Shown: in pieces, positions 1 through 44,444 of the stretch | Layout of the letters: each line of letters starts with the position of its first letter | Position numbering within the stretch: position 1 is the first letter of the stretch | Origin: an uncultured Bdellovibrionales bacterium | Lineage (GTDB): Bacteria > Patescibacteriota > Minisyncoccia > Moranbacterales > UBA1568 | Direction of reading: 5' to 3' | Assembly: GCA_964612055.1 (NCBI GenBank) | Contig: CAZTBI010000002.1 | Coordinates: 5,632 to 69,631, forward strand | Length of the DNA stretch: 64,000 nt | Translations under genes and position numbers: made by a program | The notes under the pieces: generated by a model | Told to the model about the DNA's origin: nothing | The model's database searches: none | What the model saw: only the letters and a program-made list of their open reading frames with translations

Positions 1-282
1 TCTCAAGACCCTCTGTCTGTTAAAATGCTTGCTCTCAAAGGAACTGATCTCATGAAGGAACTCGGTATTCCTCCTTCACCCATGATCGGTGCCCTCCTCG
101 ATGTTCTCCTGGCGGAAGTTATTGAGGATCCAAAAAAGAACACTCGAGAAGTACTACTCAAGCGAGCAGCCGAACTCAAAGAACACAATCTGGAGAAACT
201 CAGAAGTCTCGCAAAAGAAAAGATTGATGAGAAGCGAAGCGAGAACGATGCTGAAATAAAGAAGCACCACTGGATAGAGTAG
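1..282 (+). CDS. C-terminal fragment of CCA tRNA nucleotidyltransferase / poly(A) polymerase family protein (5' end outside window)
   Basis: Frame-1 ORF open from window edge to stop at 280-282; C-terminal motif LKGTDLMKELGIPPSPMIGALLDVLLAEVIEDPKKN resembles the C-terminal region of CCA-adding enzymes. Confidence 0.45.
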   Translation, partial: SQDPLSVKMLALKGTDLMKELGIPPSPMIGALLDVLLAEVIEDPKKNTREVLLKRAAELKEHNLEKLRSLAKEKIDEKRSENDAEIKKHHWIE

Positions 283-283
283 A

Positions 284-655
284 ATGGGTCAAACAACATT
301 TCGGATTGTAGTATATAATACCACTCAGAGAAAAGAGATTATGAAAATTTTTGTCCCAGGTATTAGCGACAATCCCGTCACTCTTATGAGGCGAGCGGGC
401 TACGTCTTTCAGCGACAGGAAGGTGGGGAAATGAGCTTTGTCCGTGTTCTCGCTCAATCCGGATATCCACGTTTTCACTGCTATACAAAAGTTTCTGGCG
501 TTGACCTTTTCTTGAATATGCACCTCGACCAGAAAAAACATACCTATGGTGCTGATACAACACGCCACCACGGAGAATATGAAGAGAGCAAACCAGTCAC
601 AGAAGAAGGAGCGAGACTCCTCAGTCTCCTTGGCGAAAAAGCGCAGCTCCTGTAA
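284..655 (+). CDS. hypothetical protein
   Basis: 123-aa ORF immediately after upstream stop; no recognisable motif. Confidence 0.4.
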   Translation: MGQTTFRIVVYNTTQRKEIMKIFVPGISDNPVTLMRRAGYVFQRQEGGEMSFVRVLAQSGYPRFHCYTKVSGVDLFLNMHLDQKKHTYGADTTRHHGEYEESKPVTEEGARLLSLLGEKAQLL

Positions 656-662
656 GAAAAAA

Positions 663-748
663 GCCGAGATGGTGGAATGGTAGACACACTAGCCTTAGGA
701 GCTAGCGGGAGCAATCCCATGAGAGTTCGAGTCTCTCTCTCGGCACCA
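663..748 (+). tRNA. tRNA-Leu (anticodon TAG), type II with long variable arm, CCA encoded
   Basis: Cloverleaf: acceptor GCCGAGA/TCTCGGC, anticodon stem CTAGC/GCTAG with loop CTTAGGA, long variable arm, T-loop TTCGAGT, ends ACCA. Confidence 0.85.
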
Positions 749-802
749 ACACAATTTCTCAATAGAAAAACTCCTAGACGATTTCTAGGAGTTTTTTAGT
801 CT

Positions 803-3625
803 CTAACGTTTTCGGAAAGGGAGCTGCGAAAGTTCCAAACGTTCCGGCAAAAGAACAAGGAAGAAACGCGTCGTAAAGAGAATCAAGACGACACTGAGGA
901 GGATTCTAAACGAGAACATGACAGAGGTTGGGATGTAGGACGCCAAGGTAGCAAGATATTTTTTTGCTCCCGGAAGTGTCCCTTGAGCAAAACCAGGTTC
1001 CTTGAGTTCAACCTGATCCGTGGCCGAGAAATGGATCTCTGGCGAATCAAGTGGTGAGATATTCCAAATGTCACGGAGTGCCTGACGAATACCCTGCGGC
1101 TGAACGACTGCAGCAGAGAGGCCGATGTTGTAAACATCCGGAGCTTCTTTGAGGGCAGTGAAAGCAATACTCATCCCCCCTCCCTCAGTCATAGAGACAC
1201 CGTCCACTGTCCACTGACGAACCGCCCTATCAGCCAAGAAATTTGGCAAGAAGGCTGCTTTAAAGGAGAGATTCTCACCAGAAAATCCTTCAAAAATTGA
1301 ATCGCTATATTCGCTACAATAACCATTTGGACAGGCCAGTGAAGCAGCGCCGTCCACATCCTTATACTGACCAACTAGTTTTGGCCAAGCCGTATTCGGA
1401 TCAACAGATTCTATAGAAAGTTCTGGGTCAATAACATGGAAAGCACGGGAGAGAGTCACTGTCTTACCCGTTTTCACGTCATTCGCTGTCATCGTGACAG
1501 CATAGGCGTCACCGACATTCCCTGATATTGGAAAGAAGTTTACAAAATTTTGTTGTCCAACAGTGATAGCGCCTGAAGCATCTTTTTCACAATCCTGAGA
1601 GACAACTGATCGATTACAGAAGAGTTTCGTCCCGTTGATAGTCCACTGGAAATTCGTCAAATCTGTTGGATCAACACGTAGACCAATAATCTCATTCTTA
1701 ATAACTCGACAGGCAGCTCGATCCAGAGGATCATCATTACAAATGAGCCCGGAAGCAAGAGGGGTAGGCAAAAGCACCTGTGTCCCATCTCCCACTACCT
1801 GAGTATTTACTTTGTACGCAGAGATCTTTTTCCCTGTCGAAGTAAATTTTACCACGACATCACTTTTCCCCTTGCGAATACTACCGCTGGCAAAGTTTTC
1901 TGAAACCTTGGCAGTAAAGCGTAGATATCCGATATCTCCGGTCAAGTAATCATCAAGTTGCCTCCCCGCCAAGAGGTAACTGCCATTATTCAGAATATCA
2001 AGCTTCAACCTCACTGTATCAAGAGCTGTCCCCTTGACGCTCCCGAGCAATTTGAGCCGCTGCAAGTCACTGGTTATTTTGGCTGAAACAAGATCACCAC
2101 CACTTCGGAATTGTGGGTTGTCGCTTATTTCAACGTCCCACTCAAAAAGTATTTCATTCACGCCACGTACCGCATTACCAACACTCGCCTCAGCAATAAC
2201 GAGGTCTCCCCCGGCATCCTCTGTCTCATCATTGATAGGCGCATCCGGACTAGCCGAAACAGAGACCTCGAGATTCGTCGCCTGGCCACCCTGAGTTGGG
2301 TCGACTAAGTTTCGCTCCAGACACTTATTCAGATCAATATCAGCCGCGTACATTGTTACCTCATACCCCTTGATCGTCTTGAAAAAAGATCCTGTCTCAT
2401 CAGCCAAAGAAAGCGGACAGTCTTTCTTTGAAAAGGCCCACATGATCATTGACGAAGAATCGTCATATTTGGTCGTGATCATCGATGTTCCTTCAACAGC
2501 CAGTCCTACCTGGTCACCTGAAGAATAATTCCAGGTAAAAGTACTCTGTCCCAAACCAGTCACATTGGCTTCATCCTTATTGCCATTATCTGCGGTATCA
2601 GGATCGGCCGGATCAGTCCCCCAGAAATCCTCTTCATCAGCCCCGAAAGAACCATCGCCCGTGACGTGTCCAGGAACCACTGGAAAGAGGTGAGCACAGT
2701 AGGTATTGAAACCACCCCCACCGCCACTGCAGGTTGTCAGTTCCGTACCACAAGAAGTCGAATATTTCGCATTGGAAACGCAACGAGGGGCCCCAACACT
2801 ACATTTTGGTACACCATCTACTCCACAGGCGGGAATGCCAGCAATATTACAGACATCGGACTCGGTAAAAGAAAAAGCCTGACTCGTCGTGTCAACACCA
2901 CCATCTCCAGGAACGGTAATATCCTCGGGACTGATTGTCTGCTCCCCTTCCATACACATCGGTGACTTACCATCTGGGCAATCGAAATTGATATCACCAG
3001 CATCCCCAAGCTCATAATTCTTTCCCGAAACTGAGTCATTGACATAGCAATGGTTCGGAGTGCTTACTTTGTTGTCACCACCAAAACGGGCTTTGTAGCC
3101 ATCATTATCAGTGTCAGAGTTATAATTCGCATCTGCCTTGTCGAAACCATTCTCCGCCAAAATTTGAGCCGCCTCTATTTTCCAATCTTCGACCGTAATT
3201 CTGCCATTACTATCACGGTCACATAGTGTTCGCACATCGTCACTCGGAGTATTGGTCAATCCACATTCTGCCCGCTTCAGGTACCAGGTATAGTACAGCT
3301 CACTCTCACTGTTTGAGAAATACATGGGAAAAGCTTTGGCAGAAATTTTCTCTCCTGATTTTGGGTCGCTCGGATTAAAGAAGAGGGATGCTTCTGGCGT
3401 CGGCTTCTTCACGTCTGCCGTATTAAAGTTTTCACCCTGACTCTGAATACTCCCCACATCAAGGTGGTAACGCTTTTCCATACCAGAAAGCATGGACGAA
3501 GCAGAGGGAATCGATGGGCCACCAAACAAACCAGCCGAAACCGGAGAAGCACTTACCACAAAAAGCTGGAGCAAGAGAAGTCCGCCAAGAAATGCTTTTT
3601 GTTTTTTTCGGAGAAAACTGACCAT
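803..3625 (-). CDS. large secreted Cys/Gly/Asp/Thr-rich cell-surface protein with Sec signal peptide and C-terminal TM anchor plus basic tail
   Basis: 941 aa if started at MVSFLRKKQKAFLGGLLLLQLFVVSASPVSA (avoids overlap with upstream gene); many Cys pairs and Ca-binding-like D-x-D-x-D-G motifs; C-terminus ...YIPTSVMFSFRILLSVVLILFTTRFFLVLLPERLELSQLPFRKR. Confidence 0.6.
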   Translation of the reverse strand: MVSFLRKKQKAFLGGLLLLQLFVVSASPVSAGLFGGPSIPSASSMLSGMEKRYHLDVGSIQSQGENFNTADVKKPTPEASLFFNPSDPKSGEKISAKAFPMYFSNSESELYYTWYLKRAECGLTNTPSDDVRTLCDRDSNGRITVEDWKIEAAQILAENGFDKADANYNSDTDNDGYKARFGGDNKVSTPNHCYVNDSVSGKNYELGDAGDINFDCPDGKSPMCMEGEQTISPEDITVPGDGGVDTTSQAFSFTESDVCNIAGIPACGVDGVPKCSVGAPRCVSNAKYSTSCGTELTTCSGGGGGFNTYCAHLFPVVPGHVTGDGSFGADEEDFWGTDPADPDTADNGNKDEANVTGLGQSTFTWNYSSGDQVGLAVEGTSMITTKYDDSSSMIMWAFSKKDCPLSLADETGSFFKTIKGYEVTMYAADIDLNKCLERNLVDPTQGGQATNLEVSVSASPDAPINDETEDAGGDLVIAEASVGNAVRGVNEILFEWDVEISDNPQFRSGGDLVSAKITSDLQRLKLLGSVKGTALDTVRLKLDILNNGSYLLAGRQLDDYLTGDIGYLRFTAKVSENFASGSIRKGKSDVVVKFTSTGKKISAYKVNTQVVGDGTQVLLPTPLASGLICNDDPLDRAACRVIKNEIIGLRVDPTDLTNFQWTINGTKLFCNRSVVSQDCEKDASGAITVGQQNFVNFFPISGNVGDAYAVTMTANDVKTGKTVTLSRAFHVIDPELSIESVDPNTAWPKLVGQYKDVDGAASLACPNGYCSEYSDSIFEGFSGENLSFKAAFLPNFLADRAVRQWTVDGVSMTEGGGMSIAFTALKEAPDVYNIGLSAAVVQPQGIRQALRDIWNISPLDSPEIHFSATDQVELKEPGFAQGTLPGAKKYLATLASYIPTSVMFSFRILLSVVLILFTTRFFLVLLPERLELSQLPFRKR

Positions 3626-3636
3626 ACCACTACACA

Positions 3637-4290
3637 TCAATGAATCACCAAGAGAAAAATGTCTGTTAAGAAAAAGAATGTCCAACTTGCTGCCCAAGAA
3701 TACCAGATGGATCGTGAAAAGTAAGCGACCAGACCAGCAAGTGGGCTAAAGACAATGAGCGGTGCTCTTTGCCAAGAGATATCCCCTGAAAGATACAGCA
3801 ACCCTACAAACAACGCTGCTTGGAAAAATACCGCCAAGAGACCAAATGACTTGAGCCACAGGAGTTGCACCAGGCCACGGAAAAACACCTCATAGAGAAG
3901 CGTCGTCAATGAAACCAAGAGCAATTCGTAGAGAAGAAACCAGAAGAAATGGAGCTGTACGGTCACCGGGAAAAAGTAGTGCTCAGTAAAAGATGTATAG
4001 CGACTAAGCAAGAACATTATCCCGAGCGCCAAGGCAACACATAGTATGCCTACGAACACTCCAAGAAAGCTGCTTCCCTCCTGCCAACCCAGATTTTTCA
4101 GGGACTCCTTCAATACTATTTTACTATACAATACCGGAACTACCAAGAAGAATGTCACCCCCACTAAGAGCGTTTGAAAGACTGGATTCACCTTGTCGCT
4201 CTGACTAAAAATCCCAAGAAAAAAGATGGAGCAGAGAACCAAGAGCCCGGTCACGATAAAACGCTTATTTAAAAAAATTTCTTTGGTCAT
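3637..4290 (-). CDS. polytopic membrane protein, CPBP (CAAX protease / Abi)-like intramembrane metalloprotease family, tentative
   Basis: 217 aa, about 6 TM helices; motif YEVFFRGLVQ resembles CPBP motif 1 (EExxxR/FRG); other CPBP motifs not clearly seen. Confidence 0.35.
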   Translation of the reverse strand: MTKEIFLNKRFIVTGLLVLCSIFFLGIFSQSDKVNPVFQTLLVGVTFFLVVPVLYSKIVLKESLKNLGWQEGSSFLGVFVGILCVALALGIMFLLSRYTSFTEHYFFPVTVQLHFFWFLLYELLLVSLTTLLYEVFFRGLVQLLWLKSFGLLAVFFQAALFVGLLYLSGDISWQRAPLIVFSPLAGLVAYFSRSIWYSWAASWTFFFLTDIFLLVIH

Positions 4291-4295
4291 AGGCT

Positions 4296-4874
4296 TTACG
4301 CTACTTTTCTTACTGATTGAGGCTGGTACGCACTGTCATTAGCCGCCTCCTGTTGATACTGAGCATTATTGGCCGCTTCCGTTTCCTGGAAAGCCGCAGC
4401 CGCTCGAGACATCTGATATTCACGGATTCGTTCAGCATTGGTTCTCGCCGTTCCTTCCGCCTCCAGTTGTTTCTGCTCCTTTTTCCAGGCACTACGAGCC
4501 ATCATATAAAGAATTACCACCGTCAATGTCTCCAAAGGAAGAAAATTCAGTCCAAATCCTACTGCCTCTACCAAACTAAAGAACATGAGTACTAAACCCC
4601 GAGTCATCTTGTTGCTCTGCTTCCCTCCCGAGCGGTCGAACAGTGTCATCAGCATCCAAATCAGAAAGGCGAAACAAGCAGTCACGACCGTTCCTATCCC
4701 AGGAAATGACCCTACTGCCGCAAAATCAAGTAAGTCTTTGAGAAGAGCAATTAAGCTTAGCCCCAAATACAACATCGCAGAAGGCTTTTCTCCAGTAAAC
4801 TTTGAGGCATGACTTTGAGTAGTCCTTTTATAGGCCGCCGCCAATATTCTCGCTTGTGGAGGAAGTGGTGCCAT
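4296..4874 (-). CDS. hypothetical membrane protein with Gln/Ala-rich C-terminal tail (T4SS-cluster associated)
   Basis: 192 aa, 3-4 predicted TM segments, C-terminal low-complexity QQEAANDSAYQPQ. Confidence 0.5.
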   Translation of the reverse strand: MAPLPPQARILAAAYKRTTQSHASKFTGEKPSAMLYLGLSLIALLKDLLDFAAVGSFPGIGTVVTACFAFLIWMLMTLFDRSGGKQSNKMTRGLVLMFFSLVEAVGFGLNFLPLETLTVVILYMMARSAWKKEQKQLEAEGTARTNAERIREYQMSRAAAAFQETEAANNAQYQQEAANDSAYQPQSVRKVA

Positions 4875-4886
4875 AACTCTATCTCT

Positions 4887-6887
4887 TTAATTCCCCGCAT
4901 CAAAATCCTTTTTCGCTTCTTCAATCTCGAGGAGCTGACGCGGATCAGAAGTAATAATCTGGTCTTCGCTGTAGGAAGCGATGATCTTGATCGCCGCATG
5001 CTTGGTACCGGCAAAGAATATTCCTTCTCCGACATTACTCTCGAGGAGCAAAAACTTCTCATGATCCGTCAAAAAGAACGTCTCTGCGATAAGCTCAATC
5101 GAGGATGGCGACTGGCGCAAGAGTAACTGAAGCGAAGAGTTGGTAATAATCGGCTTGCCGTAGCGTGACGACATGAAGTCGCTGATATCCTGCGTAATAG
5201 TCGTCAGTCCGGTGTAGTATTTACGACAACGTTTGGCAATACCGAAGAGAAAGCCGGCAGCATCTTCATGCTGCATCATGACCCAGGCCTCATCAACGAC
5301 GACCACCCGCTTCTTCAGCTTGCTCCGAATTTCATTCCAGATAAACTGCAAGATAATATACATAGCAATCGGCCGCAACTCTTCCTCAAGATCACGGATA
5401 TTGAACGCTACCAACTGATTGTCCGTCTCGATATTCGTCTGCTTGTCGAGAAAGCCACCAAAAATACCGTCCGTGTAGCGTTCCAAACGGATCGACAATG
5501 ACTCTGCTCCTTCCATATTCTGAAGCACGGCGTACAAATCTGACATCGTTGGAAACGAAGAGGCATCAAACTGAGAAAAATCACTGCGCTCATTGATATC
5601 TCGAATAGCATACGTCTCTCTGATGGCCCGGTCGAGGATCGAGTCTTCTTCTGGCGTCACTGAGCCCAACATGAGATGAAGAAGACCGATCAAATTAGCA
5701 ATGGAATTCCGGAAGACTCCTTCTGGATCCTCATCATCTACGGCTTTCGGAAGATCAAAAGGGTTCAAGTGGACATCGGAATTCAGAGAAATTTTAAGGA
5801 AACTCCCGCCCACTGCTTCACAGAGGTGTTTGTATTCATTTTCCGGATCGATGATGATAACACTCGAACCAAACATCATCGATCGCAAAACTTCAAGCTT
5901 CACAGTGTAACTTTTTCCAGCACCAGATTTGGCAAACACCACCATGTTGGCATTTTCCATTTTGAAACGATCGAAGAGTATCAGTCCGTTATTATGCCGG
6001 TTGATACCATAGAAAATACCCTGGTTCGAAGAAAGATCAGAAGAAACAAAGGGGAACGTGGTTGAAAGTGGCTCGGTATTCAAGTTATTAGCGACATCGA
6101 GAACATCATTGGCCAGTGGCCGCGTCGCTGAAAATCCCTGATCCATGCGGAGAACGGCTGGTTTGATGTACACCAACTGTGCTTCCAGAATCGACTCAAT
6201 GGCGTGACACTTATCACTCAAATCATCTTCGTCTTTACCATACACCGTCATGTACAAACCGAAACGGAAAAACTTTTCTGTTCCTTGCTGCAGTCTATCA
6301 CGCAAGCCTTCAATATCTTCCAGAGCGGTCTCGAGCATCGGGTCGCGAATCTTACCATCTTCAGCTTCGATATGGATCTGTGACTGCACCTGCGTCGCTG
6401 ACTTCCGCAGATTTTTCATGATTTCCGCCGTATCAATCGGATGGACGAAAAGCGCCGTGTCCATGCTGAAATCAATATTGATGATTGGTGAAAACCAATT
6501 GGTCGAGAGATAGCGTGGATAGGCAACCACGAAGTAGGTCCGGGCCAGAACATTGCCAACCTGCATACTATTGGAGCTCAATTTGATTGCTGGTGGAGCA
6601 ATCAAGTCCCGGAGCGTAGCCACTCCTTTTTTATACAAGGCATCCGCTTCCTTTGAAGCCTCGCCTTTGCCAAAAAGAGATGGGTTGGCCATAGGATTCA
6701 TCCGAGGAAGCGGAGCGGCCGGAACCACTGGTATTGCTTTCTCTATCTTTTCTTCAGGCAGAGCTTCTGGAACAACTGCTTCTGTCTGAGGCTCTGCTGT
6801 TTCTTCAGATACTGGAGACGATGAAGTAGGTGTGAGAGTTTTTCCCAGTACCGGACCCTTATCATCTCTGAAAACTATCCTTTCCAT
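4887..6887 (-). CDS. virB4: VirB4/TrbE/CagE-family T4SS ATPase, C-terminal ATPase portion
   Basis: Walker A VVFAKSGAGKSYTV, Walker B VVVVDEAWVMM, length and order typical of the VirB4 C-terminal domain. Confidence 0.85.
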   Translation of the reverse strand: MERIVFRDDKGPVLGKTLTPTSSSPVSEETAEPQTEAVVPEALPEEKIEKAIPVVPAAPLPRMNPMANPSLFGKGEASKEADALYKKGVATLRDLIAPPAIKLSSNSMQVGNVLARTYFVVAYPRYLSTNWFSPIINIDFSMDTALFVHPIDTAEIMKNLRKSATQVQSQIHIEAEDGKIRDPMLETALEDIEGLRDRLQQGTEKFFRFGLYMTVYGKDEDDLSDKCHAIESILEAQLVYIKPAVLRMDQGFSATRPLANDVLDVANNLNTEPLSTTFPFVSSDLSSNQGIFYGINRHNNGLILFDRFKMENANMVVFAKSGAGKSYTVKLEVLRSMMFGSSVIIIDPENEYKHLCEAVGGSFLKISLNSDVHLNPFDLPKAVDDEDPEGVFRNSIANLIGLLHLMLGSVTPEEDSILDRAIRETYAIRDINERSDFSQFDASSFPTMSDLYAVLQNMEGAESLSIRLERYTDGIFGGFLDKQTNIETDNQLVAFNIRDLEEELRPIAMYIILQFIWNEIRSKLKKRVVVVDEAWVMMQHEDAAGFLFGIAKRCRKYYTGLTTITQDISDFMSSRYGKPIITNSSLQLLLRQSPSSIELIAETFFLTDHEKFLLLESNVGEGIFFAGTKHAAIKIIASYSEDQIITSDPRQLLEIEEAKKDFDAGN

Positions 6888-6898
6888 GAAAACGAAAT

Positions 6899-7588
6899 TT
6901 AAGCGAGTTCTATCTTCTCTATATTTTTCAAGTCCGTCGTCGTGAAGAGTGACGGATTGTAGCTGTTGTAGAGCAATTCTATGATCTCTTCCGTATTGAG
7001 CTGCGTCACCTTGATACCTGTAGAAGAGAGTGCGGCCGCGATGTGATCCACTCGTTGCAACAACTGACTCCTATACGTTTCAAACAACTCCCCCTTCGAG
7101 CGAACCGCTTGTTTGGGACTAAAAATACCCATCATCTTGGCCACAAAACCTCCTTCTTGATCTTCTACTGGAGAAAATGGCACCACGATATAAAAAAACT
7201 TGGACATGATATTTGAGACCTCGCTCAAGTTCTTGATGAACGCTTTGTACTCGCCGATCTGAAAACGGAGGAGTTCGTTTTGCTGCTGTTTCTCTTCGTC
7301 ATCAAGCTGCTCCATGTACGGGGCAATATTGAAGCGACGGGACTGAATGACGATCTGCACTGGAAAATCGAGCGAATTCAGAAATGCCTGGTACTGAGCA
7401 ATAATCGCTTCTTGTTCCTGGCCAGATTTAAGATCGAAATTAAGCGAAGAAACCAGAAGCACTGCTCGCAGGGCGCCTGATTTCAAAACAATCACACCGT
7501 CGCGCATTTCTTCAACATCGACGTACTTCTGAGTACTCGAGGCGCTATTGGTTCGTTTTTTTGGTTTCAAAAACTCCATACACACCAA
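6899..7588 (-). CDS. VirB4 N-terminal domain (Gram-positive PrgJ/Orf16-type), separate ORF
   Basis: YVDVEEMRDGVIVLKSGALRAVLLVSSLNFDLKSGQEQEAIIAQYQAFLNSLDFPVQIVIQS matches the characteristic N-terminal region of Gram-positive VirB4 homologs; ends 11 nt upstream of the ATPase ORF in a different frame. Confidence 0.65.
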   Translation of the reverse strand: MVCMEFLKPKKRTNSASSTQKYVDVEEMRDGVIVLKSGALRAVLLVSSLNFDLKSGQEQEAIIAQYQAFLNSLDFPVQIVIQSRRFNIAPYMEQLDDEEKQQQNELLRFQIGEYKAFIKNLSEVSNIMSKFFYIVVPFSPVEDQEGGFVAKMMGIFSPKQAVRSKGELFETYRSQLLQRVDHIAAALSSTGIKVTQLNTEEIIELLYNSYNPSLFTTTDLKNIEKIELA

Positions 7589-7666
7589 ATATCAATTATC
7601 AGCTCGCATCAATCATACTCGTTTCAACTCACCGCTCTTCTTCGTTGATTGCTCTTTGCTCTCTGT

Positions 7667-8071
7667 TTACTGTCTCCTGTCCATAATACGAGCTAACTCT
7701 TTCAGTGTATCACGGGTCAGTTGCTTTTCAGGTTGCACCTCTTCTTGTGGCTTGTTATTTTCGGAACGAGATTTTACGGAAACCATCGGCATAACTGGAC
7801 GCTCCCAAACAGCCACCTTGGGACGAAAGAGAAAAAGCACCGCCTGTCCGATAAAGGATGATAGGGTAAAACCATTAGGCTTATAAAAAGCCAGAGCGAT
7901 AAACAGGAGCACTACCGGAATACCAAACACAATGGCTAAAGTCGTTCCAAAGGTCGTAAACAAAACCAGGAGCACCGCTCCCATAGCAATCATCCAGAGC
8001 AACTGCCGCCATGTTAGTGGACCAGCAATCTTGTCTTCGACATCAACGAATTGTGGAACACTCGACATCAT
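7667..8071 (-). CDS. PrgI-family / VirB3-like small membrane protein
   Basis: 134 aa; FVDVEDKIAGPLTWRQLLWMIAMGAVLLV followed by two TM helices; placed immediately upstream of VirB4 as in Gram-positive T4SS. Confidence 0.5.
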   Translation of the reverse strand: MMSSVPQFVDVEDKIAGPLTWRQLLWMIAMGAVLLVLFTTFGTTLAIVFGIPVVLLFIALAFYKPNGFTLSSFIGQAVLFLFRPKVAVWERPVMPMVSVKSRSENNKPQEEVQPEKQLTRDTLKELARIMDRRQ

Positions 8072-8089
8072 ATGCTTGAATATATTCTC

Positions 8090-9169
8090 TTACTCTTCTT
8101 TCCCGAGACTCACCGGTCGAATATGAAAGGGGTTTGCCTTGGGCATCGGAGCCCGAGGCGCCATTCTTTGTGGCATATTCTGCGGTTCCGGTGCCGTTCT
8201 TTCCTGCGGGATAGCCTGCGCTTTTTCTGCTGGCAGAACATGTTTCGAAGAAAACGAGAGGGTCCCTGACTGTTCTGGTGCAGCTGTTTTTGGGGTATTC
8301 ATAGTGGTAGTACCAAAATGAAAACTGGCACTATTTTGCAAAGGAGCCATTCTCGATGGAGCAACAGCTTGTGGTACTGGTCGTGGCGCCTGCGGGGCGA
8401 CAAAGGTCGGGAAAAGAACCAGGCTCTGCTCGGTATCGATTTCCAAAGGAAAGTTCTCTTCTACAGACTTAAGCACGAGGTTGACTCGCTCCCGTTCTTC
8501 CGGAGAAAGTCGCTTCCCATTCTCCGAACGAAAGAGGAAATTCCCACGCTGCACACTATCATGGTGCCCCACCCCCAGTTCATCGCGGTAATACTTGATC
8601 CAATAGAGAAGCGACGGACGGACTGGTTCACTTTGAGATTTGATTTTGATGCGCTCGCGAGTAATAAGTTGGTTACCCAACTGTTCATATTTGGAAAGGG
8701 CTTGAAGGAGCGGCAGCTTCACCGTTACTACAACTTGCTTTTTCTCCTCTTCAGACACTTCCTCAACTTTCACTTTCGGTTTGATAGTCAGAATTTCTTT
8801 CTGAATAAACTCAACAATAGCCTTAGCTTGATTCGGATCACCTCCACCACTCTCAGTGAGCATACTTGCAATTCTTGCCTCCAGTTCTGTGAGCTGTATC
8901 TCACCAAAAAAGAGTTCCCGAACAATCAAACTTACACTTCCTATAACAGAATCCTTTAGTTTTACTTTTTCCTGTAGGGACTTGATTTTTTGCGGCATTT
9001 CACTAGAAAGAATCACTTCTTGCTTATCCTGAGAAAGCTTTTCGAAGGCATCCCAAACAGACTGATCATCCTCAGGGGACATCTTTTCTTCCGTACCTTC
9101 CTTTGATACTACCATCGGATAATACCGCCGCTCTTTAATTTTTTTTTCACCTAGACCAAACATTGGCAT
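8090..9169 (-). CDS. hypothetical soluble protein with Pro-rich C-terminus (T4SS-cluster associated)
   Basis: 359 aa, no TM, C-terminal APQAPRPVPQAVAPS...PQRMAPRAPMP low complexity. Confidence 0.5.
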   Translation of the reverse strand: MPMFGLGEKKIKERRYYPMVVSKEGTEEKMSPEDDQSVWDAFEKLSQDKQEVILSSEMPQKIKSLQEKVKLKDSVIGSVSLIVRELFFGEIQLTELEARIASMLTESGGGDPNQAKAIVEFIQKEILTIKPKVKVEEVSEEEKKQVVVTVKLPLLQALSKYEQLGNQLITRERIKIKSQSEPVRPSLLYWIKYYRDELGVGHHDSVQRGNFLFRSENGKRLSPEERERVNLVLKSVEENFPLEIDTEQSLVLFPTFVAPQAPRPVPQAVAPSRMAPLQNSASFHFGTTTMNTPKTAAPEQSGTLSFSSKHVLPAEKAQAIPQERTAPEPQNMPQRMAPRAPMPKANPFHIRPVSLGKEE

Positions 9170-9181
9170 GATTCTCCAATT

Positions 9182-11185
9182 CTATGGATTAATTCCTGCC
9201 GCTCTCCATGCTGCTTTTTGTTCAGCAGTCAACTTGCTATAAGCATCAGCATGTTCCTTCGGTGACCAGTTTCCACTATGAACCTGATCAGTGACGTAGG
9301 CTATGGTTTCAGCATCAACAGGACGTCCAGTCCCACCATGCACCCCTTTAACCTTTCCGAGATCTTCAGCAGACATTCCGCCTAGATGCTTGTTATAAGC
9401 ATCTTGCCTCGTCATACCAGTAGCAATATCATTGTCAATCAATACTTTTGTATGTCCCTCTTTTTTAAGCTTCTGATCAAGCTTATCTTTAATCGCAGGA
9501 TTTGTAGCAACCATACCCTGATACTGGGCAGTAGTCATACCGTCGAAAGCTTTAGCGTCCATCTTATCAACAAGTTGAGCGATCGATTTTGTGTCGTTAC
9601 CCAAATGAGAAATAGCCGAAACCAAAGTATTGGCATCTCTAAATAATTCTTTGTCGGCTTTTTTGATAAGCTCAGCGCGCTTTTCATTTTGAGCCGCAGG
9701 ATTACCCGCATTCGCGACATCGACAGCTGCCAAACCTTGATTAAGTTGGGCGGCATCTTGGAAGCCTCCGCGCTTTGATAACAACCGAACCGCTGCTTCC
9801 AATGAAGCTTTATCGTGTTTAGTAGGATCAGCAACCATTGCTCGCAACTGAGTATCACTGGTTCGCTCTTCTTCCATCCTCTTCTCCTCTTCGGAGACTT
9901 TTTTGTTATGTTGACTCTCGACAGTTCGACGATATCCAGTCTTTCCTTCTCCCACATATGCAGCCAACCTTCCTTCGCTCTTCTCGCTAGAATCTTTCCA
10001 GTACTTAGGAGTGGCAAATCTTAGAACTTTATTATTTTCGGCACGACTCTTCAGGCCTTTTCCGACGCCTCTTGTCAACGTGTTATTATAGGTTTTCCTT
10101 CCTGCCCATTTAGCAAATTTTTGCCCCGTACCAGCTACAGCGCCGGCACCCATGATAGACATGGAAGTTGCCAGTCCAATCGCCATCCACAGCATAATCA
10201 TGGGGACGGTAAACATGGCCATAGAGCTAATAAAGCCAGCAGAAGTCGGGGCAGTATTAGCAGTCGCAGAATCAATAAATTGTTTCACCGTGTTGTCCTT
10301 CGCTATTTCTGCAAAAAAACGCGTAGCAACCATGAGCATAAGAGCTGCTGCTGGACCAAAAAACGTATACTGCCACAGTTTATCCCACCACATACCGCCA
10401 TATTTTCCGAGTCCCGGGATGACCGAAGCGGCAAAGCCGACAGAAGAAAAAATAAGAAGGATCACCAAGGCCGCTATACGAATCACAAATAGTATCGCCA
10501 AGACAAGCAGCGAAATTGAAAAGATGAACAGGAATACAATGGCCATGAGAATCTGTGACACTCCCATGCTTGTAAAATCAACCTCTTGGATACCACCCTT
10601 TGATCCAGGAATGAGGATGTTTTGAATTTGCGAAGCACTCAAAACTGTTCCCAGATAATCTTTCTGGTTTGTACCATCTCCAGTAGCCCCTATTTGATTA
10701 ATAAAGTAGTACATCGGGACATTGGTCACATCGATAATAATCCGGGTAATAGGGAAACTGAAGTTCACAAAGAGCGCCGCCAAGACAATGCTGAGCAATG
10801 TTTTCTTGTAGTTGCTCGCTACCTGAAAAACGATAGTAAAGGCAGTATAAAGAAGCGTCAGGATAAAGAAGAGGTTGAAAAAATCTCGAACAAACTGCCA
10901 CATGGTGTAGACACTGGCACGATTGAGCAGCCCATCTGATCCAGAGATATAATCCGGATTCACTGCCCATTCAAAAAGCGTAATAGCTATTGAGGCGAGC
11001 CAGCCAATCATCACAAAAACACCGTAGAGAAGAGCCTTGAATGCAGATCCTACGGTATTCCCAAGCAAATCGCCAAGACCAGCGTGCACCAAAGACGGGC
11101 TTAGAAAAAATATTCCCGATGCAAAAGCAAGAAGCGTGAAAGCAGAGACGACGATATTTTGTCTTTTGTTTTTTTTGAACACCAT
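9182..11185 (-). CDS. VirB6/TrbL-like polytopic membrane protein with C-terminal soluble domain
   Basis: 667 aa, N-terminal signal/TM then 6 or more TM helices over about 350 aa, hydrophilic C-terminal about 300 aa; position and topology as PrgH/TcpH/VirB6. Confidence 0.5.
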   Translation of the reverse strand: MVFKKNKRQNIVVSAFTLLAFASGIFFLSPSLVHAGLGDLLGNTVGSAFKALLYGVFVMIGWLASIAITLFEWAVNPDYISGSDGLLNRASVYTMWQFVRDFFNLFFILTLLYTAFTIVFQVASNYKKTLLSIVLAALFVNFSFPITRIIIDVTNVPMYYFINQIGATGDGTNQKDYLGTVLSASQIQNILIPGSKGGIQEVDFTSMGVSQILMAIVFLFIFSISLLVLAILFVIRIAALVILLIFSSVGFAASVIPGLGKYGGMWWDKLWQYTFFGPAAALMLMVATRFFAEIAKDNTVKQFIDSATANTAPTSAGFISSMAMFTVPMIMLWMAIGLATSMSIMGAGAVAGTGQKFAKWAGRKTYNNTLTRGVGKGLKSRAENNKVLRFATPKYWKDSSEKSEGRLAAYVGEGKTGYRRTVESQHNKKVSEEEKRMEEERTSDTQLRAMVADPTKHDKASLEAAVRLLSKRGGFQDAAQLNQGLAAVDVANAGNPAAQNEKRAELIKKADKELFRDANTLVSAISHLGNDTKSIAQLVDKMDAKAFDGMTTAQYQGMVATNPAIKDKLDQKLKKEGHTKVLIDNDIATGMTRQDAYNKHLGGMSAEDLGKVKGVHGGTGRPVDAETIAYVTDQVHSGNWSPKEHADAYSKLTAEQKAAWRAAGINP

Positions 11186-11332
11186 ACGTTACGAAAAGAA
11201 GATCCACTTCCCATTCTCAAACAAAAGGGGAATTTTCCGAACACTTTCGTCAAAATTATACCATACAAGAGAAGAAAACAAAAAAGAGCGCTCGCACGAA
11301 ACGCTCTTCTTTTCTTATCTTCTGACACGTTT

Positions 11333-12577
11333 CTAGTAAATGTATCCTTTGATGGCTCGGCTCGTAGCAGAAAGCGTCCGACGACTGGTCTTACCCCAAC
11401 CGACATAGTTCATTTCAGAGACCGTGATCGTACCGCCACTCACTTTTTCTACCAGGGCGACGTGACCATAGTACCGATTCTCAGTGGTTACTACGATGGA
11501 ACCAACCGCGGGCGTTCGCCCAGTCTTGTATCCCATAGCTTTGGCTTTGTAGAGCCAAGTACCAGCATTACCACTCCACGGAACATAGCGTTTCTGAGCC
11601 ACGTACCAGGTACAGTAGCCATACGGAAAGCGATGACCTGTACCAGCTCGCCCTTCGAGCTTCTTGAAACCAGAAGAAATATCAGTCGCTACACCACCTG
11701 TTGAAGTAGCATACTGACGCCGTTCGATGCCGGTATCAGGAGTGACTGGCTTCGGAGCTTCTTCTTTCTTTCCGTCAGGGATGATAATGAGGTCGCCCAC
11801 TTCTATTTCACCATTCGCTGGCAACTCATTGAAGGCGATAATTTTTTCCTTCTCTGCCTTATACATTGAAGCGATAGAATCAAGGGTATCACCAGACTTC
11901 ACCACATAGGAGAGTCCCGCTACCGGCAAGATAAATATCTGATCGCCTGGCTTGATCTGATCAGCATTGTCGAGGTCGTTAGCCCAGAGAACCGTATTGA
12001 CCGTAATACCGTTCTTCGAGGCGATACCACTTAAGGTATCGCCGTCCTTGACGGTATAGATCTTCACCCCGCCATCTTCTTCTGGGTCACGAGCGATAGA
12101 AGAGCCAGTCTGAGTCGAAAGAAGCACCTGGTTCCCCAAAGTAGCATTCTGAATATCCAAGAGTGAAATATCAGTTTTCTCCTCTGGATCAATAGGAGCA
12201 GGGGCATTGGCAAGCGGCACCAAAGACAGGTTCTCCTTTTTACTAACCTGCGCCGCGATACGATGCTTAGACGAAAGCGCTTCCTCAGCAGAAGCACCGT
12301 CGCCGTTAATATAGCCGAAAAGAAGGCTCTCTGAGTCTTTTCCCTGAGTGAAATTACTCACCGAAACGAGTAAAGCGCTCGAAGTGACGATAGAAAAGGC
12401 TGAATAGTTTCGAAAAATACGTACGACTCGATAGCCGGAAACTTCCTTGATAAAATGAAGCACTCTCGTCTGAAGACGGTGAAGGCGAGTATGCAAAGCG
12501 TAGGAAGAGACAGGATAGTCTCTTTTTTCCTTCACGTGAGGAGCGCGTTTCCAAGGAAACGATAAACGCTCTTTCAC
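11333..12577 (-). CDS. peptidoglycan hydrolase with two LysM domains and C-terminal CHAP domain (VirB1 functional analog)
   Basis: LysM motifs YTVKDGDTLSGIASKNGITV and YVVKSGDTLDSIASMYKAEKEKI; CHAP catalytic Cys (YGYCTWYV) and His (YGHVALVEKV); N-terminal TM anchor. Confidence 0.8.
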   Translation of the reverse strand: MKERLSFPWKRAPHVKEKRDYPVSSYALHTRLHRLQTRVLHFIKEVSGYRVVRIFRNYSAFSIVTSSALLVSVSNFTQGKDSESLLFGYINGDGASAEEALSSKHRIAAQVSKKENLSLVPLANAPAPIDPEEKTDISLLDIQNATLGNQVLLSTQTGSSIARDPEEDGGVKIYTVKDGDTLSGIASKNGITVNTVLWANDLDNADQIKPGDQIFILPVAGLSYVVKSGDTLDSIASMYKAEKEKIIAFNELPANGEIEVGDLIIIPDGKKEEAPKPVTPDTGIERRQYATSTGGVATDISSGFKKLEGRAGTGHRFPYGYCTWYVAQKRYVPWSGNAGTWLYKAKAMGYKTGRTPAVGSIVVTTENRYYGHVALVEKVSGGTITVSEMNYVGWGKTSRRTLSATSRAIKGYIY

Positions 12578-13027
12578 CCTCGAAAAGAAAAGCTTGGTAC
12601 GAATAAAACGTCGGCCCTTCGATTGGGAAAACCCCTGAGAACAGGTCTGTTGGAACCATCCAACAAGAAACGTCCATCGCGGCTCTTCCCCTAATTTTTA
12701 CAAATGTCAGTATAGCTTTTTCCTTTCCTTTCGTCAATGAAAAAAGTCACTAAAAACGTACTTTATGGCTTAAATAAAGCACAGTATCGTTGTATAACTT
12801 CTGCTCAAAAAGAAGTATACGCCAACTCTCAAAAGAAAGGCTCTACATCTTCCTCTCGGGCAACTTGGCAGGAAATTTGCATAGTTCCTTGCTCCTTGGG
12901 CAAGGAAAATTTTCTGACACGTTAGTCAAAACTGAGCTGGAGTTTTGATGAGCCAGAGAGGAAAGATCGGGGCCAGTAAAAAGGTGCTCTATGATACAAT
13001 ACACATGTCTTATAATATTATTCTGCC

Positions 13028-13981
13028 ATGACCTCTTTTGAAAAGCCACAGAACGATATCGAAGCTTTAGCCAAGCGCTTTTGTGACCACCTCGAGATAG
13101 AACTCAACCGATCCAGACGGACACTCGAGAGCTATTCTCGGGTGCTGCAGTCCTTCTTTTCCTGGGGAAACATCACTATTCCAGCCGATATTACCGCCGA
13201 AAAGGTCCGGGAATATCGTCTTCACCTGAACCGTAAGTCGAACCGTCGAGGGGAAAGCCTCAAGAAGAACACCCAGTCCTACCACGCTATTGTACTTCGC
13301 ACCTTCCTCAAATACCTCGCTAAACAAGACATCGAGGTCCTGCCAGCTGAAAAAATCGAGGTGGGAAAGGCCGAAGACCGACAGATTGATTTCCTCGAAT
13401 ACGATGAGGTCATGCGTCTGATCGAAGCCGCCTCCGGAAAAACCCCGAAGAACCTCCGTGATCAAGCCATCCTGGAACTTCTTTTTTCTTCGGGGCTGCG
13501 CGTCTCGGAACTCGTCTCACTCGATCGCAACCACGTGAATCTGGAGAAAGAAGAGTTCAGTGTCCGTGGTAAGGGTCGAAAATTACGTATTGTCTTTATT
13601 TCACCTGAAGCCAAGAAATCACTCCAAAAATATCTCGATATCCGCTCTGATGTCGATCCGGCTCTCTTCATCGCCTATCCCAAAAAAGGCCTGGTCAATG
13701 AGAAGAATAGGAAGCGCGAGACACTCCGTCTCACGACCAGGAGCATCGCTCGCATCGTGAAACACTATGCCACCAAGGCTGGAATACTGAAAGATGTCCA
13801 TCCGCACACCCTGCGTCACAGTTTTGCCACGGATCTTTTGGTTAATGGTGCCGATATCAGATCAGTACAAGCCATGCTTGGACATGCCTCCATCACTACC
13901 ACTCAGATCTACACCCACGTCACCAACGAACGCCTGAAAGAAGTCCATCAATCCTTCCACGCCAAAAGAAAAAAGAAGTGA
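13028..13981 (+). CDS. xerD: tyrosine site-specific recombinase XerC/XerD family
   Basis: C-terminal catalytic box HPHTLRHSFATDLLVNGADIRSVQAMLGHASITTTQIYTHV; RSRRTLESYSRVL N-terminal SAM-like domain. Confidence 0.85.
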   Translation: MTSFEKPQNDIEALAKRFCDHLEIELNRSRRTLESYSRVLQSFFSWGNITIPADITAEKVREYRLHLNRKSNRRGESLKKNTQSYHAIVLRTFLKYLAKQDIEVLPAEKIEVGKAEDRQIDFLEYDEVMRLIEAASGKTPKNLRDQAILELLFSSGLRVSELVSLDRNHVNLEKEEFSVRGKGRKLRIVFISPEAKKSLQKYLDIRSDVDPALFIAYPKKGLVNEKNRKRETLRLTTRSIARIVKHYATKAGILKDVHPHTLRHSFATDLLVNGADIRSVQAMLGHASITTTQIYTHVTNERLKEVHQSFHAKRKKK

Positions 13982-14003
13982 CCTCACATCACTTCTTTTT
14001 ATA

Positions 14004-16253
14004 TTATACCTTCTTCAGTGGCGCCACTCCGAGCATCATTTTCTTGACGCCGGCACGCTTGAAGGCGATAGTAGCCAGTGTTCCAGCGATCGAAACGATC
14101 AGTCCCGAACCGAACTGCGGATGTTCCACCATGTCTCCTGGCCTAACGTCACTGAACGTCAGCGGCTCTGCAGTTTCCGTGTTTCCTTCGGATATTTTTA
14201 GAGCTTCTTTGAGAGAACCGACTTTTTTTGTCGCTACTGGAAACGAATGAAAAGACTTTCGAAAATGACGCTTGCCCATCATCCCAGTACGTTTCAGTTC
14301 TTTTTCATCAATCAAGTGACTGGGAATTTCACTGATGAAACGTGACGGCGGATTCACCTGCGTCGAACCAAAAATAGTTCGCTGTTCGGTATAGAGGAGA
14401 CACACTCGCTCCTTGGCCCGGGTCAGTCCCACGTACATGAGCCGGCGCTCTTCTTCCATCTCTTGTGGCGAGAGGGCGCTCCGTGAGTGCGGGAACACGC
14501 CTTCTTCCAACCCGAGAATGAACACGATCGGAAACTCCAACCCCTTGGCGCTGTGCACTGTCATGACATGCACTGCCTCACTCTCCCGATTGATCTCATC
14601 GGTATCAGATGATAGCGCCACTTCTTCGAGGAAACGCTCCAGTGCTTGATCGAGACTGGTATCATTAAATTTCTGTGCCACCGAAAAAAGTTCCCGCACG
14701 TTTTCTTGCCGTACTTCTCCTTCGCTCGTCCCATCAGCCAGACTATCAAAATAACCACTCTGTTCTGTGAGAAGATCCAAAAGCTCCGTCAGTTTCAGGT
14801 CCGTCCGACTCTCCATCGTGGCTCGGATCTTCAAGAAGATATCGGCAAACTGCTTGATAAGCTTGATTTTGCCATCGCGGAGGTCACTTGTTTCAGTGGA
14901 AAGTTCATACGCCGCCTCCATAACACTCATATCCTTGGCTCGCGAGAAAGCAATCCACCGGTCGAGCGTTGCTCTTCCGATGCTTCGTTTGGGTTCATTC
15001 ACAATACGCTCCAACGCCAAGACGTCCTTTGGATTCTGTAAAAGCTTCACGTAAGAAATAACGTCCTTGATTTCCTTGCGCTGATAGAATTTGAGTCCCC
15101 CGACAATCCGATAGTTGATAGAGTAACGAAGAAACATTTCTTCCACAATACGAGACTGAGCATTGGTACGGTAGAGTACTGCAAAGTCACTCGCTGTACG
15201 CCCTTTCTTCATTTCTTCTTGCACTGTCTCCGCCACAAAACGCGCTTCTGCCTCTTCATCTTCTGCCGGACAGAGCGTGATCAATTCTCCAGCCTTAGTT
15301 TCCGTCCACAATTTCTTGTGGCGCTGGTGAACGTTCTTTTCAATTACCCCGGTGGCGGCATCAAGAATGACCTGAGTGGAACGATAATTCTGATCAAGCA
15401 CGATGACTGCTGCCTCCGGATAGTCTTTTTCAAAATTCAAAATATTACGAATATCCGCCTGACGCCAACCGTAAATCGACTGATAGTCATCGCCGATCAC
15501 AAAAATGTTGCCGTGTTTCTTAGCAAGAAGGTGTACCAGGGTGTACTGAAGCGAGTTGGTATCCTGATACTCGTCCACCATGACGTAGCGGAACAATTCT
15601 TGATACTTCTCCAAAACTTTTGGATATTCCTGAAAGAGTTTTACCGTCAATCGGATCATGTCGTCAAAATCCAAAGCATTGGTATTTTTGAGCTCCTTCT
15701 GATACCGCTCGTACACCTTGGCGGCTAGTTCCTCGTAGTAACTCCCCGTCTGAAGCAGATACTGTTCCGGCTCCATCTGGGCATTCTTAGCTTTCGAGAT
15801 CGCTTCCAAAAGCGAGCGTGGCCGTACCTGGTCCGGATCCATCTCGAGCTCCTTCATGACCTTTTTCACGATCGACTGCTGATCCTGATCATCAATAATA
15901 TTGAAATTCCGACCATACCCCAGGACTTCAATCTCCCGACGTAAGATCTTGGCACAAATGTTGTGAAAGGTGCCGATATGCGGCGGTAAGACCAAGGCGC
16001 CATATTCTGCTGCCTCACTCTGGGAAAGCAACTTCTCAATACGCTCCCGCATCTCCTGAGCCGCCTTATTCGTAAAAGTGACCGCCAAGATCCGCTCAGG
16101 ACTTACTTTTTTCTCTTCGATCAAGTAAGCAATACGGTGCGTCAAAGTCTTCGTCTTACCGGATCCGGCTCCAGCCAAAATCAAAACTGCCCCTTCTGTG
16201 GTCAGAACGGCCCGCAATTGCTCTGGATTCAACCCTTTTTCCCAAAATTTCAT
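14004..16253 (-). CDS. pcrA: ATP-dependent DNA helicase PcrA/UvrD
   Basis: LNPEQLRAV...ILAGAGSGKTKTLTHRIAYLI Walker A, DEYQDTN motif, 749 aa. Confidence 0.9.
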   Translation of the reverse strand: MKFWEKGLNPEQLRAVLTTEGAVLILAGAGSGKTKTLTHRIAYLIEEKKVSPERILAVTFTNKAAQEMRERIEKLLSQSEAAEYGALVLPPHIGTFHNICAKILRREIEVLGYGRNFNIIDDQDQQSIVKKVMKELEMDPDQVRPRSLLEAISKAKNAQMEPEQYLLQTGSYYEELAAKVYERYQKELKNTNALDFDDMIRLTVKLFQEYPKVLEKYQELFRYVMVDEYQDTNSLQYTLVHLLAKKHGNIFVIGDDYQSIYGWRQADIRNILNFEKDYPEAAVIVLDQNYRSTQVILDAATGVIEKNVHQRHKKLWTETKAGELITLCPAEDEEAEARFVAETVQEEMKKGRTASDFAVLYRTNAQSRIVEEMFLRYSINYRIVGGLKFYQRKEIKDVISYVKLLQNPKDVLALERIVNEPKRSIGRATLDRWIAFSRAKDMSVMEAAYELSTETSDLRDGKIKLIKQFADIFLKIRATMESRTDLKLTELLDLLTEQSGYFDSLADGTSEGEVRQENVRELFSVAQKFNDTSLDQALERFLEEVALSSDTDEINRESEAVHVMTVHSAKGLEFPIVFILGLEEGVFPHSRSALSPQEMEEERRLMYVGLTRAKERVCLLYTEQRTIFGSTQVNPPSRFISEIPSHLIDEKELKRTGMMGKRHFRKSFHSFPVATKKVGSLKEALKISEGNTETAEPLTFSDVRPGDMVEHPQFGSGLIVSIAGTLATIAFKRAGVKKMMLGVAPLKKV

Positions 16254-16324
16254 AGAACTTTACTATTCTATCACAGTCCGTACCTTCACTCTATCCTGGG
16301 AAGAAATATGCTAAAATACCAGAT

Positions 16325-44335: not shown

Positions 44336-44348
44336 CCGGATTTTTTTG

Positions 44349-44430: not shown

Positions 44431-44444
44431 ATTTATAAATTTTC

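Follow-up and report, generated by a model that had tools for sequence, protein, structure and literature searches.

A probable core chromosomal type IV secretion system of Candidatus Moranbacteria and its putative displaced VirB2-like pilin

Introduction

A Patescibacteria-clade class of type IV secretion system (T4SS) was published by Quinonero-Coronel et al. in 2025 (PMC12102498). In this class TrsD is the most abundant partner of VirB4, PrgI and pilins of family PF18895 are present, and relaxases are nearly absent; linkage of VirB1 to virB4 is found mainly in Paceibacteria, a type IV coupling protein (T4CP) rarely lies near virB4, and ksgA is often nearby (PMC12102498). The experimentally studied example is that of Southlakia epibionticum ML1 (SEML1_0006-0019; Wang et al. 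2023, PMC10633639), in which the T4SS genes, pilins included, are essential for epibiotic growth (PMC10633639). For a cultivated relative, tubular structures that are possibly T4SS pili have been described together with uptake of host RNA (preprint, bioRxiv 10.64898/2026.06.21.733656). Here we examine a T4SS-like gene cluster in a 64,000-nucleotide stretch of contig CAZTBI010000002.1 (64 kb, referred to throughout as the window), and we consider it very probable that the cluster is a core chromosomal, vertically inherited T4SS of Candidatus Moranbacteria (Patescibacteria, class Paceibacteria), of the MPF_FATA-derived Patescibacteria-clade type, which serves host contact and macromolecule transfer and not conjugation.

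Results

Nine open reading frames (ORFs), all on the minus strand and separated by 5-147 nt or by small overlaps, occupy positions 803-12577 of the window (Table 1), which bears out the co-directional T4SS-like block proposed in an earlier reading of this DNA (the original prediction). The VirB4 ATPase encoded within it matches P-loop_TraG (2.4e-28) and AAA_10 in Pfam, and reaches 354 bits against the NCBIfam model NF045971 conju_CD1110 (cut-off 325) over model positions 176-730 of 752. Among PDB sequences it matches 4ag5, the solved VirB4 ATPase domain, at 8.5e-52 and R388 TrwK at 6e-8, and both its Walker A (GAGKS) and Walker B (VVVVDEAW) motifs are intact. The best matches among plasmid VirB4 proteins come from Bacillota and Actinomycetota, at no more than ~35% identity, and the match to the archaeal CedB model is weak (51 bits; cut-off 700). 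Using VirB4 as the query in a species-level genome collection, we found 341 stretches that encode a relative and kept 80 loci, most of them labelled as Candidatus Moranbacteria/Moraniibacteriota or Parcubacteria-group metagenome-assembled genomes, with VirB4 identities of 68-87%.

Table 1. Positions of the cluster genes, the distant pilin gene and the flanking features in the window
Feature	Position	Strand	Basis or remark
944-aa surface protein: signal peptide, Cys-rich region, tandem immunoglobulin (Ig)-like beta-sandwich domains, C-terminal transmembrane anchor	803-3637	-	
CPBP/Rce1-like polytopic protein, 217 aa	3637-4290	-	window copy 19.6 bits, below the 22.4 cut-off
192-aa membrane protein, 3-4 hydrophobic segments	4296-4874	-	invariant K46, D47, D50 and P113 (alignment)
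VirB4 ATPase, MPF_FATA / CD1110 type	4887-6887	-	Pfam, NCBIfam and PDB matches
TrsD-like protein, 229 aa, equivalent of the VirB4 N-terminal domain	6899-7588	-	11 nt upstream of virB4
PrgI / VirB3-like small membrane protein	7667-8071	-	PF12666 47.5 bits (cut-off 27)
359-aa protein, no predicted transmembrane segment, conserved central domain and Pro-rich tail	8090-9169	-	conserved cluster member
667-aa polytopic membrane protein, 'extended VirB6-like' architecture	9182-11185	-	position and architecture
Peptidoglycan hydrolase, two LysM domains and CHAP, N-terminal membrane anchor; VirB1 analogue	11333-12577	-	Pfam LysM 85 bits, CHAP 70 bits
316-aa protein: signal peptide, VirB2-like T4SS_pilin domain, ~190-aa C-terminal extension	60332-61282	+	PF18895 27.5 bits (cut-off 26.6)
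tRNA-Leu(TAG)	663-748	+	ARAGORN and Rfam; flank, no cluster component
Xer-type tyrosine recombinase	13028-13981	+	divergent from the block; flank, no cluster component; Phage_integrase 144 bits
Best sigma-70-like promoter match, TTGACG-17-TATACT	12709-12737	-	upstream of the LysM-CHAP gene; positional candidate operon promoter

The neighbor of virB4 encodes a TrsD-like protein, which matches the NCBIfam TrsD model (4e-8), positions 2-119 of the CD1110 VirB4 model (9e-7) and positions 90-233 of the mycoplasma VirB4 model, VirB4_plasma (1.5e-11), and which carries a precomputed Pfam assignment to PF26593, TraC-like. By hhalign it aligns at 99.6% with a separate 274-aa TrsD-like protein of Pontibacillus sp. 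ALD_SL1, whose 898-kb plasmid (NZ_CP062975, 352-361 kb; positions 5477-15030 of our locus L085) holds the closest VirB4 that we found outside the candidate phyla radiation (CPR), at 34% identity, and at 88% with the first 131 residues of the unsplit VirB4 of a Clostridium perfringens plasmid. The original prediction had spoken of a split VirB4 ATPase; the ATPase and its two ORFs are indeed there, but the "split" is the native arrangement and not a broken gene, because trsD and virB4 are distinct ORFs in all 79 related loci that have both. The adjoining PrgI/VirB3-like protein, also as predicted, is found in 74 of the 80 loci and aligns by hhalign at 85% with a PrgI/TraL-like protein of Pontibacillus.

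The surroundings of these genes are conserved as well. In ~45 of the 80 species-level loci the order is pcrA-xerD-hydrolase-667aa-359aa-prgI-trsD-virB4-192aa-CPBP-944aa, followed by tRNA-Leu, and each of the 20 loci scanned for a tRNA-Leu(TAG) has one shortly beyond the 944-aa gene. In a second arrangement, B (~16 loci), prgI-trsD-virB4-192aa stand beside comM while the hydrolase and 667-aa genes remain with pcrA-xerD, and in a third, C (~9 loci, more distant), pcrA-xerD-hydrolase is missing from the cluster flank. Judged by gene order, arrangements B and C are the product of internal chromosomal rearrangement and not of movement of a unit.

Related loci L045-L065 (for example L050:6974-8578 and L053:7166-8648), which form a sub-lineage, carry two pilin genes ahead of prgI-trsD-virB4-192aa, one of them with two pilin domains and a Cys-rich N-region, and the order after virB4-192aa there runs comM-rpfB-like-ksgA-pcrA-xerD, then the LysM-CHAP and 667-aa genes.

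We scanned with Pfam all window ORFs of at least 300 aa save 59179-60222, together with part of the smaller ones, and no VirD4/FtsK/TraG-like or relaxase domain was found in the scanned ORFs of at least 300 aa, in keeping with the original prediction; four of these ORFs had no Pfam match of any kind. A Walker A scan of all reading frames of the window picked out FtsH, ComM, PcrA and VirB4; three further motifs were chance occurrences, which leaves no P-loop protein to spare. The published survey reports VirD4-like matches in most Patescibacteria genomes, with 148/5,713 of these near virB4, and relaxases in only 103 genomes (PMC12102498). The C. perfringens plasmid locus provides the conjugative contrast, as 10 kb of it hold MobC, relaxase, T4CP, PrgI, an SLT hydrolase and the unsplit VirB4, with its conjugation partners (relaxase, oriT and T4CP) within 7 kb of virB4. 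In the window, the locus lacks what defines a conjugative element of the MPF_FATA type.

The one T4SS component whose identity is harder to establish is the channel protein. The 667-aa gene sits where a VirB6 homologue stands relative to PrgI and VirB4, in the same order as in the Pontibacillus cluster, and the AlphaFold2 model of its product (pLDDT 78) has long hydrophobic helices at residues 38-342 followed by a well predicted, helical and hydrophilic C-domain of ~270 aa, an architecture of membrane part plus hydrophilic C-domain that has been described as 'extended VirB6' (PMC12857230). Position and architecture thus fit the VirB6-like call made originally, but all sequence tests failed and the fold matches are weak. 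Searches of Pfam, NCBIfam, PDB sequences (by profile) and plasmids (by tblastn) matched nothing; hidden Markov model (HMM) searches for VirB4, PrgI and CHAP had given support. Across 38 family members Pfam reported TrbL once, at an E-value of 0.74, which is chance level. The Pontibacillus protein at the VirB6 position has itself a sub-threshold TrbL match (E 2e-4, profile positions 5-213 of 215), and comparison of the 667-aa protein with this 779-aa protein by BLASTP and hhalign was not significant (P ~0.03); hhalign against an alignment of 120 TrwI-family proteins gave P=0.13. A Foldseek search of the PDB with the model returned nothing significant; R388 TrwI/VirB6 chains stood at ranks 9, 10 and 12 (E 0.6-0.9, probability 0.63-0.80, TMt 0.35-0.43), and these three entries are the sole recurring membrane-protein family in the list. 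For the family, with its 17,027 representative clusters, the matches listed are close relatives only and offer no bridge to an annotated VirB6, and the NCBI entries that are 100% identical to the 667-aa and 944-aa proteins all lack a product name. The protein is therefore VirB6-like by position and architecture, its homology being unproven.

A component that the original prediction had overlooked when it described a minimal set is a VirB2-like pilin; the coupling protein and relaxase, left out of that set, were likewise not found in our scan. In rearranged relatives PF18895 genes lie directly upstream of prgI, and a search of the window with these led to the 316-aa protein of Table 1, the sole pilin domain in the window, whose gene is 47 kb from the cluster and partly overlaps a long ORF at 61149-62447. 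Because its homologues are found directly after the 944-aa gene, on the same strand, in 10 related loci, we assign the pilin to this T4SS on the strength of gene linkage in relatives. The C-terminal part of the pilin in relatives is either a lytic transglycosylase of SLT type (E 2e-16 and 4e-13) or a lysozyme-like SLT_3 domain, and examples of such pilin-hydrolase fusions are L073:16189-17187, L080:16249-17211, L078:16507-17943 and L070:15255-16154; across lineages the pilin domain is constant and the type of C-terminal wall hydrolase is variable. The C-domain of the window pilin had no match in Pfam, NCBIfam or PDB sequences. It carries an H-x6-D...H-x-H motif, and from a reading of this motif alone looks LAS/M15-peptidase-like. 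As another candidate for a pilin we considered the 192-aa membrane protein of the cluster, which was ruled out as it matched neither PF18895 nor a pilin HMM.

The LysM-CHAP murein hydrolase, proposed originally as a VirB1 analogue, scores well in both domains (Table 1), and the catalytic motifs of CHAP can be read in the translation, with the Cys in GYCTWYV and the His in YGHVALV. Gene callers place its start at ~12535, giving 400 aa, and the gene adjoins that of the 667-aa protein in at least 37 related loci. Between these two genes lies a terminator-like strong hairpin (14-pair stem and T-run) at 11280-11312 on the minus strand, and because of it the hydrolase may be transcribed apart from the other cluster genes. 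Promoter-like sites are no more numerous in the region than expected from shuffled sequence.

Two members of the cluster had been left unassigned, and they remain so with orthologues included. The 359-aa protein and 53 orthologues had no match in Pfam, NCBIfam or the PDB, and in 56 loci its gene is flanked by that of the 667-aa protein and by prgI. The 192-aa protein, searched alone and through ~50 orthologues, had no family match; its gene stays with virB4 despite rearrangement, following it in arrangement-B loci L045-L062.

The remaining two genes encode the CPBP-like and the large surface protein. The CPBP-like call of the original prediction holds at the level of the family, 29 of 52 orthologues matching Rce1-like (best 2e-7), but the window copy itself falls short of the cut-off. 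The family does not have the motifs EExxxR, FxxxH and HxxxN/D: E134/R138 and D210 are conserved but no histidine is, motifs 2 and 3 being lost. As no histidine is conserved in the family alignment, the protein is probably catalytically degenerate and not a canonical active protease. Its gene is close upstream of the 944-aa gene in 50 loci, with short gaps or overlaps, and in the called genes the stop of the one and the start of the other overlap by 1 nt, so that the pair is translationally coupled. A fusion of the two genes in some species was considered and rejected, as they are separate, closely adjacent genes. The lost histidines taken together with the 1-nt overlap suggest a role as a non-catalytic partner or chaperone.

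The 944-aa protein corresponds to the Cys-rich surface protein predicted at 941 aa, and the description is upheld by 18 Cys residues that are invariant across 36 orthologues and by the Ig-like domains. AlphaFold2 models it (pLDDT 76) as beta-sandwich domains strung one after another, with Foldseek matches (E 1e-8 to 1e-5) to adhesion molecules with tandem Ig/fibronectin type III domains, the MG domains of complement C3, an archaeal S-layer protein and a bacterial ice adhesin. Pfam and NCBIfam gave no match, and the homologues are all unnamed proteins of Moranbacteria type. We regard it as a candidate adhesin or envelope-spanning partner.

Set beside the published Patescibacteria-clade T4SS, the locus has the same chromosomal setting, MPF_FATA-like VirB4, separate TrsD-like gene beside virB4 and PrgI/VirB3, as well as a virB4-linked wall hydrolase (noted mainly for Paceibacteria), a PF18895 VirB2-like pilin and ksgA in the neighborhood, and, as in that class, the 64-kb window scan found neither a relaxase nor a nearby T4CP. 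It differs in that the published examples have an array of pilins inside the cluster, whereas here the pilin is a single, C-terminally fused gene 47 kb away, and in that the cluster is not adjacent to dnaA/dnaN within the window. The degenerate CPBP-like, the 944-aa Cys-rich Ig-like and the conserved 359-aa and 192-aa proteins go beyond the published descriptions. On all features tested except the VirB6 call the locus fits the Patescibacteria-clade T4SS, with clade membership of VirB4 judged by identity levels, and the original view of a Gram-positive-type T4SS of an ultra-small bacterium, probably non-conjugative, matches the literature on this class (PMC12102498, PMC10633639).

Among the Bacillota MPF_FATA systems we used the CTn2/CD1110 family, the Prg/Pcf system of pCF10 and the Trs system of pGO1, with its TrsD, as comparators. 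The locus resembles these in a VirB4 that passes the CD1110-family model and in a TrsD homologue as in pGO1, and the C. perfringens plasmid locus in having a protein at the VirB6 position, PrgI and VirB4 in order with a large wall hydrolase adjacent. Unlike them, it has the N-domain of VirB4 as a gene of its own and a VirB4 identity of only 27-35%, no relaxase, MobC, T4CP or oriT was recognized in the window, and no mobile element carries the cluster.

The Pontibacillus cluster shares with the locus PF18895 pilins (two there), a large polytopic protein (weakly TrbL/VirB6 there), a PrgI/TraL-like protein, a separate TrsD-like gene, a short VirB4 and a large wall hydrolase. It has no relaxase or T4CP within its 10-kb flanks, is typed as non-mobilizable and adjoins flagellar genes. 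In contrast to the locus described here, its hydrolase is of M23 type and lies downstream, no homologues of the CPBP-like, 944-aa, 359-aa and 192-aa proteins are present, and the polytopic proteins of the two clusters have no significant mutual similarity. As the cluster on this megaplasmid has both, VirB2-like pilins and the TrsD split are not confined to the CPR. Precedent for the non-conjugative use of a VirB4 without a coupling protein is given by Helicobacter pylori ComB (DNA uptake), Bordetella Ptl and Brucella VirB; those systems are, however, diderm, with a VirB7/9/10 outer-membrane core, and only the VirB4, VirB3 and VirB2-type parts are common to them and the locus.

Beyond the recombinase, the flank on that side consists of housekeeping genes, with the XerD-like protein, PcrA, a UbiA-family protein, KsgA, a G5/DPBB wall protein, ComM and LspA, and further along a DksA-type protein, YraN, PNPase, an NYN nuclease, S15, GyrA, S1, TilS, FtsH and ribonucleotide reductase. 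Past the left edge of the window lie the CCA-adding enzyme and IF-2. Rfam found tRNAs in the window and nothing else. A 123-aa ORF at 284-655 (+), with no family match, adjoins tRNA-Leu and has a counterpart in the same position in 26 related loci (51-71% identity). The wall protein between ksgA and comM, at 18826-19797 (-), combines G5, DUF348 and DPBB domains (RpfB/YabE-like, wall-remodelling) and is a second muralytic-type gene near the T4SS. A patch at 39000-42000 and 44000-45000 has a low GC content (0.37-0.39, against ~0.47 elsewhere), and genes there encode a TSP3-repeat protein (38874-39932) and a protein resembling Wzy_C O-antigen ligases (40193-41956); this may be a variable surface-glycan region.

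Discussion

From what is known of T4SS biology we infer that the Moranbacteria T4SS functions in host contact and macromolecule transfer. In such a machine the LysM-CHAP hydrolase would open the parasite's own wall locally, PrgI and TrsD would dock a VirB4 hexamer on a membrane channel formed by the 667-aa polytopic protein, and VirB4 would power the extraction of pilin and its assembly into a short tube. The Ig-like 944-aa protein, and possibly the muralytic C-domain of the pilin, would engage the host envelope, and the whole would serve an epibiotic lifestyle through contact with the host and transfer of macromolecules. Least certain in this scheme is our preference for uptake of host material or pilus-mediated access over T4CP-dependent export, which we hold since the system has no linked coupling protein.

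Several points weigh against this reading of the locus. The clade membership of VirB4 rests on identity (68-87% to the 80 CPR loci versus no more than ~35% to plasmids) and not on a tree, and the VirB6 assignment is without significant sequence or fold support. Four cluster proteins, those of 359, 192, 944 and 667 aa, have no known family. A distal T4CP is possible, since 64 kb have been seen and most Patescibacteria genomes have a VirD4-like match somewhere (PMC12102498), and small relaxases are possible among the ORFs below 300 aa, which were partly scanned. Neither the direction of transfer nor the nature of the substrate can be read from the DNA.

The lack of a linked coupling protein or relaxase in the window scan would also suit a machine that imports nucleic acids, like H. 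pylori ComB or archaeal Ced, and that feeds host DNA or RNA to a nucleotide-auxotrophic parasite, a reading that we regard as possible although doubtful. Genes for the handling of nucleic acids (ComM, PcrA, PNPase, the NYN-domain nuclease and YraN) lie within 27 kb of the cluster, and virB4-192aa directly abuts comM in the arrangement-B relatives; however, these neighbors are ordinary housekeeping genes and the linkage is unspecific. Speculation in the literature and the preprint on host RNA uptake (bioRxiv 10.64898/2026.06.21.733656) agree with import. VirB4 does have its weak match to CedB, but the score of 51 bits is far under the cut-off, there is no ComB-type VirB7/9/10 set, and comEC-dependent competence is separate and is dispensable in S. 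epibionticum (PMC12857230).

That the system exports protein effectors or toxins into the host, as do Bordetella Ptl and Brucella VirB, which also work without a T4CP, we consider unlikely. Effector systems lacking a T4CP do exist (PMC12102498, PMC12857230), and the conserved soluble 359-aa protein inside the cluster could be a substrate, but no effector-like domain or secretion signal was identified. The C-domain of the pilin is of muralytic type in relatives (SLT, E 2e-16), although hydrolase domains may act solely on the parasite's own wall.

More speculative, and in our judgement improbable, is a Moranbacteria-specific host-piercing module added to the Patescibacteria T4SS, making it a feeding organelle that has no coupling protein and draws in host nucleic acids. 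Its parts would be the pilin with interchangeable muralytic C-domains (SLT, SLT_3 or LAS-like), the anchored 944-aa Ig-like protein, rich in disulfides, with its catalytically dead CPBP-like partner, and the two unknown conserved proteins, which together with VirB4, TrsD and PrgI would form a tube that breaches the host wall.

The original prediction also allowed for a domesticated integrative element, and an integrative and conjugative or mobilizable element (ICE/IME), domesticated or active, inserted at tRNA-Leu by a XerD-like integrase, would explain why the block has a tRNA gene at one end and, at the other, a tyrosine recombinase whose catalytic residues are intact; the T4SS class is, moreover, thought to derive originally from monoderm conjugative elements (PMC12102498). 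We nevertheless reject this explanation, to which we give very little credence, because of the synteny, the absence of an att repeat, the flank-like composition and the Xer type of the recombinase. No second copy of the tRNA-Leu 3' end (last 24 nt, up to 3 mismatches) was found in 64 kb, and 1-16500 is free of long direct repeats that would bracket the block. Composition is indistinguishable from that of the flanks, with GC contents of 0.465 for the cluster and 0.473 for the flanks and synonymous codon fractions that correlate at r = 0.91 and differ by a root mean square of 0.074, compared with 0.064 +/- 0.015 for other contiguous blocks. The recombinase scores 250 bits against the NCBIfam XerD model and 244 against XerC, both below the cut-off, passes XerA_Arch (238; cut-off 220) and has weak scores against integrase-specific models; its gene stays beside pcrA in at least 30 loci and is missing from the cluster flank in arrangement C. 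Dozens of species share the synteny of cluster, tRNA and pcrA-xerD flank, and the rearrangements observed break the cluster internally instead of moving it as a whole. As the loci kept were all chosen by the presence of VirB4, empty tRNA-Leu sites could not be sampled.

Finally, the idea that chance or generic similarities (a HerA/FtsK-like ATPase beside unrelated membrane proteins) only mimic a T4SS, which draws on the four of nine proteins without a family and on the unproven VirB6 call, can be dismissed, as VirB4 exceeds the cut-off of a curated equivalog model and matches a VirB4 of solved structure, PrgI and the pilin are above their cut-offs, TrsD matches the N-domain of VirB4 and the gene order parallels that of Gram-positive T4SS loci.

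The class to which we assign the Moranbacteria T4SS was published in 2025, and the locus adds little on the existence of such systems; what is new here is the displaced pilin fusion and the conserved, unnamed accessory genes. The locus gives a clean, conserved example from Paceibacteria with defined gene boundaries, and demonstrates a T4SS that is core, chromosomal and non-mobile. The only Patescibacteria species tested cannot grow epibiotically without its T4SS, which makes the role of these systems a central question in a lineage that accounts for much of bacterial diversity. For this question the 944-aa Ig-like protein, the degenerate CPBP-like protein, the 359-aa and 192-aa proteins and the pilin-hydrolase fusions are candidates for a part in host contact.

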